Under the pieces are notes generated by a model. It saw only the letters and a list, made by a program, of their open reading frames with translations, was not told the origin of the DNA and ran no database searches. From an uncultured Gammaproteobacteria bacterium (GTDB lineage: Bacteria; Patescibacteriota; Patescibacteriia; Magasanikbacterales; UBA922): 64,000 bases of DNA. The DNA lies in contig CAZFTR010000002.1 of assembly GCA_964522405.1 (NCBI GenBank), positions 72,032 through 136,031 of the forward strand. Direction: 5' to 3'. The translations under genes were made by a program, and so were the position numbers. Below are positions 3,248 to 60,143 of this stretch, piece by piece (position 1 is the first letter of the stretch; every line of letters starts with the position of its first letter).

Positions 3248-4045
3248 ATGATCAAAAAGATTTTGAAAAAAACTTTTGGAAAATTGGGATATGATCTCAC
3301 TTCAAAAAAAGTCCAAGAAAGAAAATCTATCAAAGGAGCTCTCAAGCAAATAGCTAAATTTTGGAGTCCAGATACTGTTATTGATGTTGGAGCTGCTTTT
3401 GGTAAGTGGAGCCTAGAAGCTAATAAGGTTTTTGAAAACTCAGATTATATTTTGCTTGAGCCAGTAGAAGAATATCAAAAAGTTTTAAAAGACTTGGAAA
3501 ATCAAAACAAGAGATTTAAATATCTAAAACTTGGCGCAAACTCAAAGCAAGGTGAATTTGAGTTTAATCTGCATGATGACTTGGTTGGTTCTTCTCTAAA
3601 AAAAGAGGTAGAAGGTGGAGATGTTGATGGAAAGTCAATAAAAATTAACTGTGACACTTTAGATAATATTTGCAAAGATCGCTTAGATAAAACTTTTTTA
3701 TTAAAATTGGATGTGCAGGGAGCAGAACTGGATGTGCTTGCAGGAGCTGAGCAAGTTCTTAGGCAAACAGAATGTTTAGTAATGGAAGTTTCACTTTTTA
3801 AATCATTTGAAGATGGTATTGATTTCTATGATGTGGTTAAATATATGAAAGAAAGAGATTTTGTTTTGTATGACATTTTTTCTTTTTTATACAGACCATA
3901 CGATGATGCGCTTTGCCAGGTGGATGCGATTTTTGTAAAAGAAAATGGTACTTTTAGAAAATTTCATGGATATGCAACAGAAGAGCAGCGCAAAGTACAA
4001 AATCAAAAATTTCTAGAAAAAAATTCTAATATTTTAAATAAGTAA
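3248..4045 (+). CDS. FkbM family methyltransferase
   Basis: VIDVGAAFGKWS SAM motif and LKLDVQGAELDVLAGAE, the FkbM-type signature. Confidence 0.7.
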   Translation: MIKKILKKTFGKLGYDLTSKKVQERKSIKGALKQIAKFWSPDTVIDVGAAFGKWSLEANKVFENSDYILLEPVEEYQKVLKDLENQNKRFKYLKLGANSKQGEFEFNLHDDLVGSSLKKEVEGGDVDGKSIKINCDTLDNICKDRLDKTFLLKLDVQGAELDVLAGAEQVLRQTECLVMEVSLFKSFEDGIDFYDVVKYMKERDFVLYDIFSFLYRPYDDALCQVDAIFVKENGTFRKFHGYATEEQRKVQNQKFLEKNSNILNK

Positions 4046-16024: not shown

Positions 16025-16056
16025 AAACAGTAAACAGTAGTGACTGGTAAAATTTG

Positions 16057-16106
16057 TCATCTCGAGCGGAATTTTCTGAAAGAAAAATGGAGTCGAGAGA
16101 TCCCTT
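16057..16106. repeat. partial (left-arm only) copy of the inverted-repeat element found at 59989-60143
   Basis: About 45 of 50 nt identical to the left arm of the 59989 element (gtcatc[t/c]cgagcgga[a/g]ttttctgaaagaaaaatg...gatccct). No matching right arm lies downstream. Confidence 0.5.
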
Positions 16107-19860: not shown

Positions 19861-19926
19861 GTATTAGTCTGTAGTTATCAGTCGATAGAAAGAGTATTAT
19901 TTAGACCTTGAATTAATAATTAGCAA

Positions 19927-19953
19927 TAAAAAAGCACCGCAATTGTGGTGTTT
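19927..19953 (+). terminator. intrinsic terminator
   Basis: gcaccgcaattgtggtg hairpin followed by ttttt. Confidence 0.6.
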
Positions 19954-19970
19954 TTGATTATATTATGTTT

Positions 19971-20210
19971 GGGGCCGCGGGGGACGACTCCATCTCAAAT
20001 GCAACTCGTGTGCTGCTCCCGTCCCCACAAGAGAGGCACAGGTTTACTCGACACCGCAAAGCCGAGGAATTACATAGAGAGGAGTCGTCCCCAAAGGATC
20101 TGGAGGGTGGCCGTCTAAGCCTGGTTATCAAGCAGACTCAGGAAAGCAGAGGAGAGTGTTGTCGGAGAGACATCGCCACCCTTGAGAATCCTTAGCGCGT
20201 ACAGAGCATA
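19971..20210. ncRNA. GC-rich structured element made of two stem-closed units; candidate ncRNA of unknown family
   Basis: About 60% GC in a 33% GC context. GGGGGACGACTCC at 19979-19991 pairs with GGAGTCGTCCCC at 20081-20092, and GGAGGGTGGC at 20102-20111 pairs with GCCACCCTT at 20175-20183. There is no SD-led ORF. Confidence 0.35.
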
Positions 20211-20324
20211 TCATGTTTATTAGATTTTGTCTAGTCCTGCATAATTTTTTCAGTCAGATTTTTTGATTATTGAGCATGTATCCTCTTTATGCTACAATTT
20301 ATCTATATTCTTATTATTTGATTT

Positions 20325-23466: not shown

Positions 23467-24171
23467 GTGAAGACGCTTTGCAGCGTTTTTTTGCTTGCTG
23501 CTCTTTTGGTGGCTCTTGCTTGTCACTGGCTGATCGGGGTTCTAACCCCCGAGAAGCCCAGTGAGTCAATTCAGGAGGTCTTTTCAGGACTTGTTCAGCT
23601 CGATGAACAGGAACGAGAAGAGATCCTTTGGGTTGAGAGTGAGCCTGAAGAAGGGCGCCGGCAGATCAAGCCTGCCCTAACCATCCTGCTTTCAAGATCA
23701 GACGTGCAAATGTACGTTGATCAGGAAATTGACGAGTACCAACTCGTCTCTCGAGGTACTCTGTCTGTCACGGTGCGAAATATCACTGTGGCACTGCGCA
23801 ATTCTTGGGCTGTGTTTGACACCCGGGTTTTGGTGCAATTCAATGGCAAAATGTACACTAGCAGAATAGTTTTGAGGTTGGCTGAAATCAACTACGAACG
23901 GGAAAGCCGAGCAATCTATGTGGGCAAGTTCAAGATCGATCATATCAAGACACCGGCAGCGCCTTACTTCGTTGCCGAACTTCTGAGATGGCCGCTCAGT
24001 GAACTGATCACCTGGACTATCTCGAATCGTCCACTCCACTACCTGACTGAAGATGACTTGTCTGACTTGCCGGTCAAAGGTGTTTGGCCTTCGGCGATTT
24101 GGTTGGAAGATGACAAGGTAGTCGTCGGTTTGGGTGTTGCAGACGACGTCGTGAGCTCAGGCTCTCCGTAA
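23467..24171 (+). CDS. GC-rich hypothetical secreted/membrane-anchored protein (no recognisable family)
   Basis: GTG start preceded by an AAAGGGGA Shine-Dalgarno sequence, N-terminal hydrophobic helix, and about 52% GC against the roughly 33% backbone. A bidirectional terminator follows. Confidence 0.5.
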   Translation: MKTLCSVFLLAALLVALACHWLIGVLTPEKPSESIQEVFSGLVQLDEQEREEILWVESEPEEGRRQIKPALTILLSRSDVQMYVDQEIDEYQLVSRGTLSVTVRNITVALRNSWAVFDTRVLVQFNGKMYTSRIVLRLAEINYERESRAIYVGKFKIDHIKTPAAPYFVAELLRWPLSELITWTISNRPLHYLTEDDLSDLPVKGVWPSAIWLEDDKVVVGLGVADDVVSSGSP

Positions 24172-26758: not shown

Positions 26759-26983
26759 TCAGATCTCGATCTCCGGAATCGCCCTGTTGTGGCGGTCCGG
26801 CGGGTCGAAGGGCTCGTAGGCCGGCAGCTGGGTCGGCCTCAGCGAGGTCTGTCCTTCTTCTCCCTCGTCGTCCTCCTCTTCGTCAGTGTAGTGGCGCACC
26901 GGCTCTTCCGCAGGACGGTCAAGCCGACGAGTGTCATCACATGGGCCCGGTTCTGGTGGGCTCGGGTGATCCTCTTTGGGCAT
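26759..26983 (-). CDS. GC-rich small acidic Pro-rich protein (74 aa), unknown function
   Basis: About 62% GC. AGAGGAG Shine-Dalgarno sequence 7 nt upstream, TTGACA-17-TATCTT promoter at 27015-27043 (minus strand), and a terminator hairpin at 26673-26696. Confidence 0.4.
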   Translation of the reverse strand: MPKEDHPSPPEPGPCDDTRRLDRPAEEPVRHYTDEEEDDEGEEGQTSLRPTQLPAYEPFDPPDRHNRAIPEIEI

Positions 26984-31796: not shown

Positions 31797-32240
31797 ATGG
31801 AGAGGTTGCTTAACCTCTGGGACAATTTCGCCGACTGGCGCTGGACCCCGGTCATCGGGATCTTGGTGGCTCTCGTGCTCATCGTCGGCCTCATTCGCGA
31901 GGCGTCGTACATGATCGGGATGGAGCCGATCATCGGTGAGCAGTTCGCGGCCGAGGTCGGTGCTTCCTACTGTCAGGCGGCTCACGCCGACCCGGAGTGG
32001 GGAGCTGCTGAGCTCCGGGCCTGTGGCGCGCGGCTCGAGCAGCTGGTCACGCCCGAGGAGTGGGACGAGCTCAAGCCGACGATCATCTCGGTCTACTCCG
32101 AGGAATGCGTTCCTGTCAACCTCGGCCTCTGCGCTGAGATCGAGGCTCGGTACAAGACGCTCGAGGACGATCCTCATCTCGGAATGCTCGTCGTGGCCCG
32201 CGACTTCGTCTGGCTGCGACGCGGCCTGTACGGAGACTAG
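31797..32240 (+). CDS. GC-rich small membrane-anchored protein (147 aa), unknown function
   Basis: GGAGGGAAG Shine-Dalgarno sequence 6 nt upstream, one N-terminal TM helix, four Cys in the soluble part, about 60% GC. Overlapping alternative-frame ORFs were rejected. Confidence 0.5.
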   Translation: MERLLNLWDNFADWRWTPVIGILVALVLIVGLIREASYMIGMEPIIGEQFAAEVGASYCQAAHADPEWGAAELRACGARLEQLVTPEEWDELKPTIISVYSEECVPVNLGLCAEIEARYKTLEDDPHLGMLVVARDFVWLRRGLYGD

Positions 32241-32277
32241 GCCGCGAGCCAGGTTCGAACGTTCATCTCGCGTTGGT

Positions 32278-32390
32278 AGGCGAGATTCTGTTCTTTTCTT
32301 TTACGCTTTCATTGGAGACGAAGGCGTTCCCGGCGACAACTACCAGTCGCCATCGGAACTATGTTTTTTTGAAAAAGAAAATATTGACCA
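32278..32390 (+). repeat. 110-bp 3' repeat module, copy 1 (nested hairpins plus T-run; terminator-like)
   Basis: Nearly identical to 32842-32953. Contains GTTCCcGGCGACaactaccaGTCGCCatcGGAAC followed by tatgttttttt. Confidence 0.7.
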
Positions 32391-32434
32391 ATAAAAAATT
32401 GCTTTCTTAAGCATTTTTTTATTTTCTACAGGTC

Positions 32435-32534: not shown

Positions 32535-32840
32535 ATGGACTTGTCGGTTCGTTTGGATCGCTGGATTCTGGTATGGGTCATTGCTTCCGCGCTGGTCGTC
32601 TTCGGCGTGCTGGTGTTCTCCACCAACGATTGGATGGAGTTCAACAGCGTAAACGTTGAGATCGACTTCGTTGCCGTCAGACTGGCCTCGGTCGTAGACG
32701 ACAACTCCGAGCAGGAGCAGCCGACGGCCAGTCCGACCGTCTACGCTCTGCGTCCCGGAATCCGTCCCGGGATCAGGATGTGGGACCATTCGGCCCACGA
32801 GTATCGCGTGGTAGCACGACTCGACCACCCGCGCCGGTAG
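32535..32840 (+). CDS. GC-rich small membrane-anchored protein (101 aa), unknown function
   Basis: TAAGGAG Shine-Dalgarno sequence 6 nt upstream, N-terminal TM helix, PGIRPGIR repeat, about 58% GC. Confidence 0.5.
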   Translation: MDLSVRLDRWILVWVIASALVVFGVLVFSTNDWMEFNSVNVEIDFVAVRLASVVDDNSEQEQPTASPTVYALRPGIRPGIRMWDHSAHEYRVVARLDHPRR

Positions 32841-32841
32841 G

Positions 32842-32953
32842 CGGGATTCTGTTCTTTTCTTTTACGCTTTCATTGGAGACGAAGGCGTTCCCGGCGACAA
32901 CTACCAGTCGCCACCGGAACTATGTTTTTTTGAAAAAGAAAATATTGACCACA
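32842..32953 (+). repeat. 110-bp 3' repeat module, copy 2
   Basis: Direct repeat of 32278-32390 with 2 to 3 mismatches, followed by a further hairpin terminator at 32959-32982. Confidence 0.7.
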
Positions 32954-33291
32954 TAAAAAACACGTGTAAACCGTGTTTTTTTGTTTTGGTAAATTTCCTT
33001 GCCTCGCCCCGATTCTCACCGGGGCGAAGCTGGTTGGCGACCTTGGTCGCTCAGGTGATGCAGGATCCGCCGATCAGGAGACCGGCAAAAGCAAAGGCCA
33101 GCGCTACGACCCTGATCATGTGCCAGAAGTCGGTCGGCTGTCCGTAACTGCGTCCACTCCGATTGCTCAAAACTTGTCCTCCCAGACTACATTTTAGACC
33201 TTTTTTGCCTAATAGGTCAAATAAGGCTAAATCATTGACTTTTTAGGCATTTTAGAATATAATCAATCCACACTTATAAAAATTCAAATTT

Positions 33292-39274: not shown

Positions 39275-39682
39275 TCAGGGAGTCTCGCCCTCGTAGAGCT
39301 TGGGACAGTGCCGGCGCAGGCGGGCGCGCCAGCGATCATTGGCGCACTCAGCCGGGCACCAGAATCCGAGTCTGCACATCAGGCGCTCGGCCAGCCGGTA
39401 GCCGATCTCGCGGATGTCACCGACCGCCTGGGTGCCGATGAACCGGTGCGGAATCCCGCAGCGGTCGAGAAAGGTCAGTGCTCGGGTGCAGGGGTCGGTT
39501 TCTCTTCCAACCCAGCTGAACTCCTCGGAGATGTATCCGTCTTCGAGGGCGCGCGTCAGACGCGCGCCGAAGCCGAACTCGATGAGGGGTCTGGGGTTCC
39601 CTTCGACGATTTCACAGAGAACCAGGATGCCACGGTGATCTCTGTCACCGAGGATCCGCATCATGTGGCGGTATTCTGTCAT
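39275..39682 (-). CDS. GC-rich hypothetical protein (135 aa) with C-terminal Cys cluster
   Basis: About 62% GC. GGAGAAGG Shine-Dalgarno sequence, promoter TTGCAA-17/18-TAATAT on the minus strand (39710-39739), WCPAEC...HCPKL possible zinc ribbon, and a terminator hairpin at 39243-39270. Confidence 0.5.
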   Translation of the reverse strand: MTEYRHMMRILGDRDHRGILVLCEIVEGNPRPLIEFGFGARLTRALEDGYISEEFSWVGRETDPCTRALTFLDRCGIPHRFIGTQAVGDIREIGYRLAERLMCRLGFWCPAECANDRWRARLRRHCPKLYEGETP

Positions 39683-43446: not shown

Positions 43447-44985
43447 ATGAAGCTTGAACAGGGTTTGAAAAAGATAATTAGTTCCCCAAGCAAGGCATTT
43501 TCAGTGCTTTGCTTTTGTTTTCTGCTCGGAGTAGCTTTTATTTCGATTTTAGATTTTAAGCTGAAGTTTTTTCACGCCTATATTTGTTTTTTTACAATTA
43601 TTTCATCTTTGTTTTTGTTTTGGAATAAAAAACAAATAAGATTTTCATTATTTTGCGTATTTTTATTTGTTTTTGGGATTATCAGATATGCTTTAGCATT
43701 TCCAATTAATCAAAATCATATTTCTAAGTATATAGATCAGAAAATTAGTTTTATTGGAATTATTACTGCTGAACCTGATGTGCGTATGGATGGAGTTAGA
43801 TACATTATTGAAAGCAGAGAGGTTTTGGAAGAGGAATCAAGTAAGAAATCAAAAGGACGAGTATATATAAAAGAAAAACTGTATCCGCGATACAGCTATG
43901 GTGATAAATTAGAAATTTTTTGCAGAATCCGGGAACCAGAACCAATTGAGGCAGATCCAGGATCAAAAGATAGAGATTTCCGCTATGATCGTTATCTGGC
44001 GCGTTTTGGAGTATTTGCAAATTGCCAAAATCCAAAAATAGAGGTTTTGGAAGCGAGTCGGGGGAATATGATCATGAGATCAATACTTTCTTTAAAAGAA
44101 ATAGTAGCCCGGAAAATAAACCAACTTTGGCATGAGCCCCACGCTAGTTTTATGGCAGGCTTGCTCTATGGTTATCGTGGAGGACTTGGAAGCTTGAATG
44201 AGCTTTTTAGTAGAACAGGAGTAACTCATATTGTTGCGATCTCTGGATACAATATTACAATTATTTCTACGATTTTGATCACAGTTTGTGTGCGACTTTT
44301 GATCCCTAGAAAAAAGGCTTTTTGGTTGATTGTTATTGGAATAATAGTTTTTCTTATTTTTGCCGGGCTTAGCGCCTCAGTTGTCCGAGCTGGAATTATG
44401 GGAATAATTGTTTTGATTGCAAAGCAGCTTGGTAGAGCAAGTCGAGTAGGAAATGTTATGTTACTTACAGCAGTTGTTATGACTCTGCACAATCCCTTTA
44501 TTCTTATTTGGGATGCAGGATTTCAATTATCTTTTATTTCAACTCTTGGGCTTGTTTATCTGACAAAATTTGTAGAAAAACCCTTTGAGAAATTACCGGA
44601 AATATTGGGAATAAAAGAATCAGTCCTTTCAACTTTGGCTGCTATTATTTCAACATTGCCGCTTATACTTTATCAGTTTGGGAGATTATCGATTGTCGCT
44701 CCAATTGTAAATGTGTTGATACTCTGGATTATTCCCTGGATTATGATTGTTGGTTTTTTTGGAGTTGTGGTTGGTTTTGTTTTTAAACCGATTGCAGTTT
44801 TACTTGCTTGGATTTCTCATGCAGGCATGGCATATATAATTTTGATTGTTAAATTTTTTGCTGGATTTAGTTTTGCAGCTGTGGATATGCGAGTTCCGAT
44901 TTGGTTTATGTTGGCTTCATACTTTGCAATGATTTGGTTTGTGATCAAATCAAAGAAATTAGAAAATAAAAAAAGCTCTGGATGA
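43447..44985 (+). CDS. comEC: ComEC/Rec2-family DNA internalisation channel (membrane competence domain)
   Basis: Polytopic membrane protein with DUF4131-like N-terminus and a Competence domain (GVTHIVAISGYNITI). Confidence 0.75.
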   Translation: MKLEQGLKKIISSPSKAFSVLCFCFLLGVAFISILDFKLKFFHAYICFFTIISSLFLFWNKKQIRFSLFCVFLFVFGIIRYALAFPINQNHISKYIDQKISFIGIITAEPDVRMDGVRYIIESREVLEEESSKKSKGRVYIKEKLYPRYSYGDKLEIFCRIREPEPIEADPGSKDRDFRYDRYLARFGVFANCQNPKIEVLEASRGNMIMRSILSLKEIVARKINQLWHEPHASFMAGLLYGYRGGLGSLNELFSRTGVTHIVAISGYNITIISTILITVCVRLLIPRKKAFWLIVIGIIVFLIFAGLSASVVRAGIMGIIVLIAKQLGRASRVGNVMLLTAVVMTLHNPFILIWDAGFQLSFISTLGLVYLTKFVEKPFEKLPEILGIKESVLSTLAAIISTLPLILYQFGRLSIVAPIVNVLILWIIPWIMIVGFFGVVVGFVFKPIAVLLAWISHAGMAYIILIVKFFAGFSFAAVDMRVPIWFMLASYFAMIWFVIKSKKLENKKSSG

Positions 44986-45328
44986 GCTTGGAATTAGTGC
45001 AGGAGTGATCTCGGGGCTCGCAGTGGCGCACTTCCGACCTTTTCTCGGTATGGGCGGCGGCTAATTGCCAGCCGGCCTCACCGTAAGGTGTTGGATAGTA
45101 CGCCACGCGAGCCCTCTAGTCAGATGCCGTGCATCTCGTTCTCCCCCTAATAGCCGCATGTGGCCCAGACGTAGTTTGGTTTCGTTGCCGTTTTGCCTCC
45201 GTGGTTTTGAAGTGGAGGTCTTGGCTCGAATTGGGCCGTCGTTGATTCTTCTGCTCGGCTATAAGCAGAAGAACCCGACGCAAATATTAAATCATAAAAA
45301 AGATTTTTTGTCAAGATTATCACTCTCC
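44986..45328. ncRNA. 343-bp GC-rich non-coding island (about 58% GC), candidate structured RNA or inserted element
   Basis: No SD-led ORF. It contains a perfect 10-bp hairpin TTCTTCTGCT/AGCAGAAGAA at 45246-45273 and other stems. It lies between comEC and the ComEC-type MBL gene. Confidence 0.3.
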
Positions 45329-46243: not shown

Positions 46244-47648
46244 AATTTCTTTGGTAGTGTTTTTTGCATTACTATTTTTTGCTATACCGGTAAAAGCTGA
46301 ATTTAATTTTGTGATCAATCAAGGTGTTTGGATGTCAGACAGTAGTGCTTTTGCAGGAGACAAGGTTAAACTATATACAGTAGTTATAAATAATGAATTT
46401 CAAACTCTTTTTGCAGATCTAAATTTTTATAATAATGGAGATTTGATCGGAGTGGCCAAAGCCGATGGAGTTAAATATGAAGAAGCTCGACAGGTTTGGA
46501 TTGAATATACTTTGCCAGAAGGTGACCTAAATATTGAGGCAAGATTGGCAAATGTTTCAGTTGAAGAAATTTCCGGAAATACATTGCCGGTAAATGATGA
46601 TGACCTGGGTGGTTCATCAGTAAAATCCAGTTATGAAATAGACCTGGATACAGACGGCGATGATGTTGGAAACAAAGAAGACACAGATGATGATAATGAT
46701 GGACTTACTGACCAAAAAGAATCTGAAATCGGCACAGATCCGCTTAGTTCTGATTCAGATAGTGATGGTCTAAAAGATAAAACAGAAGTTGATCGGGGTC
46801 TGAATCCAAACAATCCTGATTCAGATGGAGATGGCCATTCCGATAGCAAAGACCTGTTTCCAAATAATAAAGGCGAGTGGAAAGATGCAGATGGCGATGG
46901 AATTGGAGACAATAGTGATAATGATGATGATAATGATGGGCTTAGTGATGATGAAGAGGAAAAGTTGGGGAGTGACCCGAACAATCCAGACTCAGATGGT
47001 GATGGTTTAAATGATGGAGAAGAAAAAGAACTTGGAAGTGATCCAACCAAAGCTGATTCAGATGGAGATGGTATAGATGATAAGGCTGAATTTGATCAAG
47101 GAACCAATCCTGCAGAATCAGATTCAGATGGAGATGGCCTTAGTGATGCCAAAGAAATCAATGAATTAAATACTGACCCGAATAATCCAGATTCAGATGG
47201 TGATGGTCTAAATGATGGAGAAGAATCAGAAAAAGGCACAGATCCACTAAAAGAAGATACAGACGGAGATGGTGCCAATGATCTGGTGGATATCTTTCCT
47301 TTGGATCCGGAAGAGTCAGTAGATACAGATCTCGATGGGATAGGAAATAACACAGACACAGACGATGATGGAGATGGTCTAAGTGACCAAGAAGAAAAAA
47401 ATATTGGTACCAATTTGCTTGAAGCAGATACAGACCAAGATGGGCTAGGAGATAAAGAAGAAAAAGATCTTGGAACAAATCCGACAGCATCTGACACAGA
47501 CGGAGACGGAGTAAATGATGGAAAAGACAAAGAGCCCTTAATTCCACAAAAGAATTTATTGAAGAAAATCATGATCGGCGCGGCAATCCTTTCATTTTTA
47601 CTGTTTTTAGTATTTTCAGTTTTGTATAGTCAGAAGATAAAAGAATAG
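46209..47648 (+). CDS. secreted acidic protein with many thrombospondin type-3-like Ca-binding repeats and a C-terminal TM anchor
   Basis: Signal peptide, about 20 DxDxDGxxDxxD-type repeats ([24 protein letters not shown]) and a terminal hydrophobic helix. Confidence 0.7.
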
Positions 47649-47714: not shown

Positions 47715-47916
47715 TTATTTATCTGCAAATATCATATAAAATGTAACGTCAAGTGATCAATTTAATTTGCTAATTTGGTTATTTCTGTAGAGCAGAGCGA
47801 TATTTTATCTGTATATATCATATAAAATGTAACGTTAGGCGATCAATTTAATTCGGTGATTGGATTGTTTCTGTAGAGCCGAGTGTAATTTTATATGATA
47901 TATACAGATAAAATAC
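47715..47916. repeat. two 88-bp direct repeats plus an inverted partial copy
   Basis: Repeat 1 at about 47715-47803 and repeat 2 at about 47803-47892 share roughly 80% identity (tctg..tatcatataaaatgtaacgt..gatcaatttaatt..ttctgtagagc). 47891-47916 is the exact reverse complement of the start of repeat 2. Confidence 0.6.
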
Positions 47917-49126: not shown

Positions 49127-49164
49127 TTTTTTTATATTTAGTTACCAATTTTTGTTGTTTAGGG

Positions 49165-49294
49165 TTCATGTCATGAAGGCAGATGAGACAATCCGCAGCT
49201 CCCTTGCTTATGTCCCTGAAAGTGGGTGCCGTGTGAGTGCTGAAAGCAGATCAGCAAGAGAGGCGAGGACGGCGAAGCTGTCTTTATGACATGA
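49165..49294. ncRNA. GC-rich element closed by an 18-bp imperfect inverted repeat; candidate structured RNA
   Basis: TTCATGTCATGAAGGCAG at 49165-49182 pairs with CTGTCTTTATGACATGAA at 49277-49294, matching in 16 of 18 positions. The core of about 95 nt is roughly 58% GC. It sits 150 nt upstream of the response-regulator gene. Confidence 0.3.
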
Positions 49295-49439
49295 AGCTCT
49301 GTATATGGAATCAATTTATAATCATATTTAAAAAAGGGTAATCAATTTCCTATCCACAAAGATTTAATTCACAAAGATCTATATCTGGCGTATAATGGAA
49401 AATGGTACTTGATATAAAAAGGTACAATTAATAATTAAT

Positions 49440-56990: not shown

Positions 56991-57106
56991 ATTATAGTTT
57001 ACAGATGACAGTTAATAGTTAATGAATGTTGTTACATTTTGTTAACTAATAACTGTAAACTACCAACTGTAAACTACCAACTGTAAACTACCAACTGTAA
57101 ACTAAT

Positions 57107-57874
57107 ATGATCCCATGGTTTCAATATAATGTTGTTTATTTAGGTCCTCTGCCCCTTCAGGTTTGGGGATTTTTTGTTGCTTGTGGAATAGCTTTGTCAT
57201 TGATTTTATTATATAGATTTGGAAAGAAAAAAGGATTTGACCCGAGTCAATTATTGGATCATGCAGTTTGGATTATTATCGTCGGATTGATTTTTTCCAG
57301 AATTTTTCATATTGTTTTTTATGAGCCTGCGTTTTATATTTCCAATCCGCTAGAAATAATTAAAATATGGCATGGTGGTTTATCATCTTATGGTGGTTTT
57401 GTGGGTGCTATTATTGGATTTTTTCTATTTGCCAAAAAGCGAAAAATTGATAGGAAAAAGTTTTTAAAAATCTCAGACTTAGTTGGTTGGACAGCCATTT
57501 TTGGTTGGATTATCGCTAGGGTTGGTTGTTTTATGATACATGATCATATGGGGAAACCTTGTGATTGTTTTTTAGCTATAAATACACCTGATGGACCTCG
57601 GCTGGAAATGGCTTTTCTTGAAATTTTGGCGCTTTTGCCTTTGGCAATTTTATTTATATTTCTTAGAAACAAAAAAATGCCTGAGGGATGGTTTATTTCA
57701 GTTTTAGCCATATATTACGGTATTACCAGATTTGTGTTAGATTTTTTCCGAGCAACAGATATTGCTCAGGCTGATGCGCGTTATTTTGGATTGACACCAG
57801 CTCAATATTTTAGTATGGTTGCCTTTGGTTTTGGGGTGTATATGTATTCCAAAATCAAAAAAAGAAAAAAGTAG
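57107..57874 (+). CDS. lgt: prolipoprotein diacylglyceryl transferase
   Basis: Lgt signature GGLSSYGGF, polytopic, 255 aa. Confidence 0.85.
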   Translation: MIPWFQYNVVYLGPLPLQVWGFFVACGIALSLILLYRFGKKKGFDPSQLLDHAVWIIIVGLIFSRIFHIVFYEPAFYISNPLEIIKIWHGGLSSYGGFVGAIIGFFLFAKKRKIDRKKFLKISDLVGWTAIFGWIIARVGCFMIHDHMGKPCDCFLAINTPDGPRLEMAFLEILALLPLAILFIFLRNKKMPEGWFISVLAIYYGITRFVLDFFRATDIAQADARYFGLTPAQYFSMVAFGFGVYMYSKIKKRKK

Positions 57875-59987: not shown

Positions 59988-59988
59988 T

Positions 59989-60143
59989 GTCATCCCGAGC
60001 GGAGTTTTCTGAAAGAAAAATGAAGCCGAGGGATCCCTGTCTATGTAGTAGAAAGAGTGGATTAAAAGTGTTGCATTCTACTGTATAGACAGGGATCCCT
60101 CGGCTACGTCCCTTACTTCGTAGAGACTCCGCTCGGGATGAAA
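59989..60143. repeat. 155-bp element with 16-bp perfect terminal inverted repeats and a nested internal palindrome; MITE-like or structured RNA
   Basis: Outer IR TCATCCCGAGCGGAGT pairs with ACTCCGCTCGGGATGA. An inner stem of about 27 bp pairs AGCCGAGGGATCCCTGTCTATGTAGTAGAA with TTCTACTGTATAGACAGGGATCCCTCGGCT. A partial copy lies at 16057-16106. Confidence 0.55.

Follow-up and report, generated by a model that had tools for sequence, protein, structure and literature searches.

A GC-rich structured element upstream of pilT in a Magasanikbacterales genome: a candidate minus-strand small RNA gene in a tRNA-Pro slot

What is encoded by a GC-rich block of 240 nucleotides that is wedged between ytxH and pilT in the genome of an uncultured member of the Magasanikbacterales? 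The element in question occupies positions 19971-20210 of a 64-kb stretch of contig CAZFTR010000002.1 (the window, by which we mean the whole stretch of DNA that was analysed), and a first-pass annotation made from the nucleotide sequence had described it as a non-coding island composed of two stem-closed units that might specify a structured non-coding RNA (ncRNA). Our analysis shows that the island is a real feature and that this earlier observation was largely correct. The reading that we favour, with a probability of about one half, is that the island is a lineage-specific gene for a structured small RNA (sRNA) that would be transcribed from the minus strand and would occupy an ancestral tRNA-Pro slot. 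We prefer it because the base composition of the element, the promoter and the terminator aligned with its edges, its strand-specific inner structure and its non-coding state all fit such a gene. Long GC-rich intergenic regions of AT-rich genomes have been found to be enriched in structured RNAs (PMC6429828; PMC8632094).

A GC-rich, non-coding segment between ytxH and pilT

The GC content of the element is 56.2%, compared with 27% in its 100-nt flanks and 36% in the window, and it falls inside the range of the tRNA genes of this genome (49-64%). The enrichment that had been reported is thus genuine, while the value of about 60% given for it was slightly high: 61% is the peak reached in a 100-nt segment, not the mean. 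The position assigned to the island was also accurate: the ytxH terminator (19930-19955) precedes it and the pilT promoter (TTGAGC-17-TG-n-TACAAT; 20270-20298) comes after it, with pilT, a gene for a PBP, tRNA-Glu and tRNA-Met following farther on the 3' side. The sequence of the element is 100% identical in three independent Logan assemblies that stem from two studies and represent one organism. It is therefore no assembly artefact, and for the same reason these three copies carry no evolutionary information. The neighbouring genes, pilT and ytxH, assign this genome to the Magasanikbacteria (Patescibacteria/CPR). The top identity of PilT to proteins of the GTDB species genomes is 72% among the matches listed, and that of YtxH is 65% in a collection of 5.8 billion proteins, the organism itself excepted.

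Both long-range helix closures that had been noticed, about 90 and 65 nt apart, are present. The first pairs GGGGACGACTCC (19980-19991) with GGAGTCGTCCCC (20081-20092) at 12 of 12 positions, with 89 nt between the arms; the second joins TCTGGAGGGTGGC (20099-20111) to GCCACCCTTGAGA (20175-20187) with 85% complementarity and 63 nt between the arms. When the 240 nt were shuffled 300 times by mononucleotide, a perfect inverted repeat of 12 bp never arose; the longest repeat had 11 bp, and 6-7 bp was typical. Folding of the segment 19965-20215 gave a z-score of -3.9 for the plus strand and one of -5.0 for the minus strand. A sequence motif, GAAAGCAGA(G), that had been attributed to both units does not hold up: GAAAGCAGA is present in the element as a single copy (20142-20150), in the second unit alone. 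The window contains three copies of it where 1.25 would be expected, and the same number was attained in 15 of 100 shuffles, so that its sharing with the island at 49165-49294 is at chance level. A family link to that island was rejected as well, as the 9-mer and the 10-mer that the two have in common are not colinear and are likewise at the level of chance.

An open reading frame (ORF) of 76 codons (19965-20195) covers the GC-rich block almost exactly. It is preceded by neither a Shine-Dalgarno (SD) sequence nor a promoter on its own strand, has no Pfam match and no protein homologue, and is left uncalled by the gene callers in the source assemblies. The GC content of its three codon positions (0.60/0.48/0.58) betrays no periodicity, as compared with third-position values (GC3) of 0.71-0.84 in the high-GC ORFs of the window. 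We therefore ruled out the element as a coding sequence on the grounds of its flat codon periodicity and the failure to find a Pfam match or a homologue, in agreement with the first-pass annotation, which had seen no SD-led ORF.

Nor does the element belong to a known RNA family. We carried out the Infernal/Rfam scan that had been proposed, using the 4227 models of Rfam 15 (among them those for RNase P, tmRNA, SRP, 6S, riboswitches, HEARO, raiA, ROOL and GOLLD), with the whole window searched at gathering thresholds and segments of 601 and 256 nt searched at E <= 10 with relaxed filters. At gathering thresholds, four tRNAs were the only matches in the whole window and the element remained unmatched; at E <= 10, it yielded just two riboswitch matches at chance level, to c-di-GMP-I-UAU and to guanidine-II, and no known family could be assigned. 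ARAGORN reported neither a tRNA nor a tmRNA at the element. The first-pass annotation had likewise looked for motifs of tmRNA, RNase P RNA and SRP RNA without finding them; for tmRNA, there is no Rfam match at E <= 10, and the GGGGCCG at the plus-strand 5' end is without a complementary 3' end. Reading the sequence by eye, without a scripted motif scan, we saw no T-arm, D-arm or CCA-proximal acceptor pairing, and no P4/CR-I/CR-V, SRP helix-8 motif or single-rod 6S shape. The c-di-GMP-I match (RF01051/RF03168) was rejected on its score, 14.2 bits against a threshold of 65.9, and because the place of the P1 hairpin is taken by about 10 nt. The guanidine-II (mini-ykkC) match was discarded too: it scored 12.4 bits against a threshold of 32, most of the model pairs were flagged as non-canonical, and GGGGACGAC belongs to the long-range 12-bp helix and not to an ACGR tetraloop.

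The minus strand and its predicted transcript

On the minus strand, the non-coding segment is bracketed by a predicted promoter and a predicted intrinsic terminator, both at the level of consensus matches, as would be expected of a stand-alone sRNA gene. The promoter, TAGACA-17-TG-n-TATGCT (20233-20205), agrees with the consensus in 9 of 12 positions and sits exactly at the right edge of the island. It comprises a -35-like hexamer, TAGACA (20228-20233), and an extended -10 region, TGaTATGCT (20205-20213), that touches the edge of the GC-rich block; both come from the promoter scan and inspection of the sequence. With the usual spacing of 5-8 nt after the -10 region, transcription would start at about 20198-20200. 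At the opposite end lies an intrinsic terminator (19928-19955) that is common to the element and ytxH and is bidirectional, found as such on the plus strand and read from the sequence on the minus strand, where it takes the form CACCAC-AAUU-GCGGUG followed by C and U6 (19933-19928). Its hairpin begins about 20 nt outside the left edge of the GC-rich block and also forms in the fold of the whole predicted transcript. When the plus strand was scanned for such signals, no usable promoter appeared in the interval from the ytxH terminator to the island, and 3' of the island there was no terminator. The evidence therefore favours the minus strand, divergent from pilT, by virtue of its promoter, the U-tail of its terminator and its G.U-containing helices.

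From these signals we infer transcription of the element and both ends of a primary transcript of about 275 nt (19926-20200, minus strand), reaching from the putative start to the U-tail of the terminator. Its minimum free energy (MFE) structure has an energy of -109.6 kcal/mol (z = -6.35), none of 200 shuffles was equally stable, and it is nearly identical to the centroid structure. From 5' to 3', the predicted fold comprises a closing helix of 4 bp, domain A, domain B, an AU-rich spacer and the terminator hairpin. In the closing helix, P1, which is a weak prediction, CGCG at 20196-20199 would pair with CGCG at 19976-19979.

Domain A (20094-20193), the second unit of the first-pass annotation, is folded as a long hairpin in which the helices AAGGAU/AUCCUU and AGGGUGGC/GCCACCCU surround a pair of small hairpins and a large internal loop; z-scores of -3.3 (minus strand) and -2.8 (plus strand) were obtained for it. 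Within it, a pyrimidine-rich stretch of 18 nt, ACACUCUCCUCUGCUUUC (20142-20159), is unpaired in both the MFE and the centroid structures. Since it carries anti-SD-like CUCC/CCUC sequences, it can be viewed as a candidate interaction site. Domain B (19980-20092), formerly the first unit, has a 16-bp stem with a perfect core of 12 bp, a 9-bp helix above it, and a three-way junction with two hairpins whose loops read UUUGCGGU and GGGG. Folded on the minus strand, it reaches -63.6 kcal/mol (z = -7.4), compared with -47.5 kcal/mol (z = -5.1) on the plus strand. This asymmetry is most pronounced in the inner three-way junction (19995-20077), which folds on the minus strand alone: -30.5 kcal/mol (z = -2.3) was calculated there as compared with -16.7 kcal/mol (z = -0.3) on the plus strand, and its five minus-strand G.U pairs become A.C mismatches on the plus strand. 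Overall, the minus-strand fold contains seven G.U pairs and the plus-strand fold three.

According to the scheme that we propose, the island would be an independent minus-strand transcription unit for a structured sRNA of about 230-275 nt, starting near 20198-20200 at a sigma-70-type promoter that is placed back to back with that of pilT, and stopping at the bidirectional intrinsic terminator that it has in common with ytxH. The RNA would consist of two stem-closed domains enclosed by a short helix, followed by the AU-rich spacer and the terminator hairpin, and domain A would present its 18-nt CU-rich, anti-SD-like loop. Our best guess for the function is that of a trans-acting regulatory RNA that may pair with purine-rich mRNA segments resembling ribosome-binding sites, or that may bind a protein. 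Such a unit would sit in a plastic slot, where many relatives have a minus-strand tRNA-Pro(CGG) with the same arrangement of promoter and terminator.

The slot in relatives and the competing explanations

To view this slot in other genomes, we inspected at least 80 pilT loci, taken from the species genomes of GTDB, together with 11 contigs anchored on ytxH. Among the matches listed, 19 of the 34 Magasanikbacteria with enough upstream sequence possess a minus-strand tRNA-Pro gene (CGG and/or GGG) within about 1 kb upstream of pilT, and in these 19 genomes its distance to pilT is usually 350 nt or less. Where both ytxH and tRNA-Pro are present, the tRNA gene lies between ytxH and pilT. The closest syntenic relatives among these matches (L001, L010, L085 and L086) share the order ytxH, bidirectional terminator, minus-strand tRNA-Pro(CGG), divergent promoters, pilT, PBP, tRNA-Glu and tRNA-Met, the portion from pilT to tRNA-Met being common to them and to the window. 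It follows that the ancestral layout had an RNA gene here, on the minus strand. In five other relatives (L006, L009, L027, L032 and L033), ytxH directly adjoins pilT, and still others carry unrelated small ORFs or other genes 3' of ytxH. In view of these variable contents, we regard the slot as a plastic hotspot, in which an RNA gene on the minus strand is what is most often found.

Two relatives carry unusual structures in the same place. In locus L008 (3705-3900), a stem-closed non-coding element of about 190 nt is found between ytxH and pilT instead of a tRNA gene; it is held together by a 10-12-bp closure, GGGGGAGAAG/CTTCTCCCCC, has z-scores of about -2.6 on both strands and is dissimilar to the element of the window. 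Upstream of pilT in locus L002, two degenerate tRNA-Pro-like copies (3300-3412 and 3658-3778) adjoin an intact tRNA-Pro(CGG) and an intact tRNA-Pro(GGG); they were missed by Rfam and ARAGORN, contain GC-rich hairpin modules inserted in the T-arm, and are truncated in their 5' half. The element itself contains no remnant of tRNA-Pro that is detectable by alignment to the tRNA-Pro genes of relatives. An intron-containing or split tRNA-Pro, or a remnant of one, was accordingly rejected: Smith-Waterman alignments to four relatives' tRNA-Pro were no better than those of shuffled sequences, 0.19-0.56 of which scored as high, and the longest match was an 11-mer.

Several findings weigh against an sRNA gene. 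The outcome of the search for homologues is foremost among them: BLAST and nhmmer found none in the at least 80 loci of relatives, single-sequence covariance models of both domains had no match in 36-44 of these loci, and the plasmid and phage collections contained none either. A metagenome scan with the pattern GGGACGACTCC-N(75-105)-GGAGTCGTCCC retrieved no homologue; its nine matches are unrelated palindromic repeats in contigs of 53-72% GC. Five scans of viral contigs with 18-20-mers returned nothing or chance 18-mers within genes. As no homologue was found, the predicted fold has no covariation support, and homologues with compensatory changes, of the kind that define a conserved class of structured ncRNAs, were found neither in 44 relatives' loci nor in the metagenome, viral, plasmid and phage scans. 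The first-pass annotation had named absence of conservation in relatives, together with absence of transcription, as evidence against an RNA, and in the relatives sampled we indeed saw no conservation of sequence or structure among the matches listed. In addition, matches of 9 out of 12 to the promoter consensus arise readily by chance, four being found in an 800-nt scan in which 1.8 were expected, and the promoter and terminator could be the remains of a lost tRNA gene. The closing helix P1 measures merely 4 bp. A duplex scan of the window for targets of the CU-rich loop revealed no outstanding site; the top sites (-23 to -27.5 kcal/mol) are scattered over the window and do not cluster at translation starts. 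Finally, perfect helices of 12-16 bp are commoner in young inverted repeats than in old functional RNAs.

The last of these points leads to the main rival explanation, which we consider somewhat unlikely. It holds that the island consists of one or two palindromic DNA inserts of the MITE/REP type (about 113 and 100 bp) that have no RNA function of their own, would be transcribed, if at all, incidentally from the old tRNA promoter, and landed in a recombination-prone intergenic hotspot by displacing tRNA-Pro(CGG) or following its loss. The long perfect helices speak in its favour, for each unit is bounded by near-perfect inverted repeats (12/12, reaching 16 bp, in one; 8/8 and 6/6 in the other); so do further palindromic repeats of the window (16055-16105 and 59988-60140), the variability of the slot, which in relatives holds one or two tRNA-Pro genes, the pseudo-tRNAs of L002, the L008 element, ORFs or nothing, and the lack of conservation just described. 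Yet BLAST with 7-nt words and covariance models of both domains detected no second copy of either unit in the 64-kb window, and the direct repeat in the flanks, ATTATGTTT/ATCATGTTT, does not exceed what chance gives in AT-rich flanks, 75% of shuffled flanks doing as well. Moreover, the inner part of domain B folds well on one strand alone, a property that a DNA palindrome does not need, and the two edges of the GC-rich block are marked by a promoter and a terminator that belong to one strand.

If the element were instead read on the plus strand, it might be a cis-regulatory leader of pilT, for instance a divergent c-di-GMP-I-like riboswitch controlling type IV pili. It does lie directly upstream of pilT on the coding strand, and the sole plus-strand hint from Rfam, c-di-GMP-I-UAU (20026-20133), has the blocks GCACAG, CGCAAAGCC and AGCCUGGUU in order. 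Nevertheless, we judge this very unlikely: the E-value of the match is 1.6-3.8 even when merely 256-601 nt are searched, a 50-nt insertion is needed to accommodate it, and the roughly 10 nt that replace P1 stand where a hairpin with a GNRA loop belongs. Furthermore, there is no promoter upstream of the element, the ytxH terminator is immediately adjacent, and a good pilT promoter is situated downstream, so that the element is outside the predicted pilT mRNA; an expression platform is missing, the plus-strand fold is the weaker one, and no such leader is present in the relatives among the matches listed. An equally small probability attaches to the proposal that we are dealing with a highly divergent universal RNA (RNase P RNA, tmRNA, SRP RNA or 6S RNA) or a tRNA-Pro that is permuted, split or interrupted by an intron. 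The GC-rich, structured nature of the element, its predicted promoter and its location in a tRNA slot agree with this idea, the heptamer UUGGGGA (20095-20089, minus strand) resembles the anticodon loop of tRNA-Pro(GGG), and a failure of the models is conceivable since two other structured non-coding islands of the window have no Rfam match either; the Rfam, ARAGORN, alignment and by-eye results given above run counter to it. Least probable of all is a decayed or very small protein-coding island, i.e., the remnant of a foreign gene that is drifting toward AT. The near-exact fit of the 76-aa ORF to the GC-rich block and the presence in the window of several orphan high-GC ORF cassettes with promoters of their own are compatible with it, but the codon-position values of the ORF differ from those of the real islands (GC2 0.40-0.50 beside their high GC3), signals for expression, Pfam matches, homologues and gene calls are all missing, and the element has no sequence in common with any island. 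A structured ncRNA thus remains the best interpretation, with the plus-strand placement of the first-pass annotation given up in favour of the minus strand.

In the course of the metagenome search, we encountered a clustered family of palindromes, (TAC)GGTGCCAGGGACGACTCCGACACC... / ...GGTGTCGGAGTCGTCCCTGGCACCGTA, on JGI metagenome contigs of 68-71% GC (L088, L090, L092, L093, L095 and L096). It was matched solely through an 11-mer that it has in common with the outer helix of the element and is otherwise unrelated.

Other islands of the window and comparison with known systems

Two kinds of island can be told apart in the window, orphan high-GC ORF cassettes and non-coding islands with a tRNA-like GC content. 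The second kind comprises the element, 44962-45290 and 49161-49303, none of which has an Rfam match. These islands have their layout in common and not their sequence, and we group the element with the other two by analogy only. The membership in a GC-rich island family that had been proposed for it thus holds loosely, for composition and layout with respect to the two non-coding islands; a shared sequence or motif was not borne out, and the ORF islands are different in kind. From 26759-26983, 31797-32240, 32535-32840 and 39275-39682, the element differs in lacking their GC3 signal, their SD sequence and any shared sequence.

The island at 44962-45290 (minus strand) is a stronger ncRNA candidate than the element itself. 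It is a non-coding unit of about 320 nt with 56% GC, located between comEC and a gene for a secreted protein with a metallo-beta-lactamase domain, and is equipped with a promoter of the CTTGACAAAA type (TTGACA-17-TTTAAT, about 45283-45315) and, at about 44965-44985, with a terminator hairpin followed by U7. Its fold reaches -136.6 kcal/mol (z = -8.1) with identical MFE and centroid structures, and it has no Rfam match at E <= 10. The third non-coding island, 49161-49303, is a long hairpin of 52% GC between pilM and a response-regulator/pilin/prepilin-peptidase cluster. Whichever strand is folded, its z-score is about -3.0, with energies of -56.1 kcal/mol (plus) and -44.6 kcal/mol (minus); a promoter, TTGAGA-18-TATATT, is found upstream on the plus strand, and neither a terminator nor an Rfam match was detected.

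The high-GC ORF cassettes, 26759-26983(-), 31797-32240(+), 32535-32840(+), 39275-39682(-) and 32958-33203, have 60-64% GC overall with peaks of 65-74% in 100-nt windows, against 36% in the genome. Each has a canonical promoter, mostly TTGACAAAA..., as well as a GC3 of 0.71-0.84 and a strong SD sequence, which is absent from native genes, for example ytxH and pilT. No convincing Pfam match was obtained for the cassettes, two matches with E of about 0.09 being below threshold. For a 135-aa island protein, collections of 5.8 billion and of 1.84 billion proteins yielded no full-length homologue and a single partial match of 30 residues (E = 1.4e-8). The cassettes give the impression of orphan genes that were acquired recently or are anomalous in some other way. 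A 125-nt segment (32275-32398 and 32836-32960) is present 3' of two different tandem high-GC ORFs in copies that are 97.6% identical. It contains a hairpin, GTTCCCGGCGAC...GTCGCCACCGGAAC, a T-run and the next TTGAC promoter, which suggests a duplicated cassette scaffold that carries different ORFs.

Repeats are found elsewhere in the window as well. One of them, TGTCATCYCGAGCGGARTTTTCTGAAAGAAAAATGRAGYCGAGRGATCCCT, occurs twice with 90% identity, at 16055-16105 and 59988-60140, the second copy forming part of a long nested palindrome, with arms of 30 nt that are 93% complementary, beyond the end of a gene. Tandem or dispersed arrays are located at 46736-47519, 47718-47915 and 57040-57109; they comprise a 109-nt unit present seven times at intervals of 66, 135 or 171 nt, a pair of 86-nt units with a perfect 28-nt inverted repeat, and a 14-nt period (TGTAAACTACCAAC) in four overlapping copies. 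Directly 3' of the tRNA-Glu/tRNA-Met genes, an ORF of 234 codons (23467-24171) with an N-terminal hydrophobic segment has 52-57% GC, well above the genome average.

The element might also be one of a set of recently acquired GC-rich orphan transcription units, each with its own promoter and terminator, and thus a functional foreign RNA gene that has captured the tRNA-Pro(CGG) slot. The acquired set would then comprise the ncRNAs at 19926-20200, 44962-45290 and 49161-49303 and several of the high-GC orphan small-protein cassettes. We consider this proposal improbable; if it were true, it would suggest that ultra-small episymbiotic bacteria have a hitherto unrecognised way of bringing in small RNA and protein genes of very different base composition and of expressing them. 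More generally, the element and the other GC-rich orphan units hint at a genome in which small foreign units are acquired and expressed. Regulation in bacteria of the candidate phyla radiation is almost unknown, and the sRNA, if expressed, would be among the very few candidate regulatory RNAs described in them, and an example of a non-tRNA RNA gene within the promoter/terminator slot of a tRNA gene. As a singleton without homologues, it as yet supports no general conclusion and is a target for metatranscriptomics, not a discovery.

How does the element compare with systems that are already known? With the candidates derived from GC-rich intergenic regions of AT-rich genomes (the GC-IGR approach; PMC6429828; PMC8632094; PMC11109978), it has in common an intergenic GC content far above that of the genome and a strong predicted structure, which is exactly what this approach selects for; those candidates were accepted on covariation among homologues, whereas the element is a singleton. 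Like the c-di-GMP-I (GEMM-I) UAU variant RF03168, it is positioned upstream of a type IV pilus gene and has three blocks in order on the plus strand; unlike this riboswitch, it reaches 14 bits instead of 65.9, lacks the P1 hairpin with its GNRA loop, has an insertion of 50 nt in P2, and is outside the predicted pilT transcript. Miniature palindromic elements, such as Correia/NEMIS, RUP, BOX, ERIC and REP/BIME, form another point of reference. They resemble the element in having units of about 100-115 bp that are bounded by inverted repeats, in lying in intergenic regions near promoters and terminators, and in being sometimes co-transcribed. The element differs from them in that it is single-copy in 64 kb and has no significant target-site duplication, its two units are mutually unrelated, and its inner structure is strand-specific.

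With the tRNA-Pro(CGG) genes of relatives, the element shares its position, its strand, a promoter divergent from that of pilT, the bidirectional terminator used jointly with ytxH and a similar GC content, although it is three times longer and has neither the sequence nor the cloverleaf of a tRNA. Stand-alone genes for trans-acting sRNAs include those for RsaE/RoxS of the Firmicutes, with their C-rich loops, and that for MicF, which is divergent from ompC. In sequence and family the element is unrelated to them; compared with typical sRNAs, it is larger and far more extensively paired (76 pairs, including the 16-bp stem), and it is known by prediction alone. What it has in common with these genes is a predicted sigma-70-type promoter, a Rho-independent terminator, a size of a few hundred nucleotides, an intergenic location with a divergent neighbour, an exposed pyrimidine-rich, anti-SD-like loop, and a lineage-restricted occurrence.

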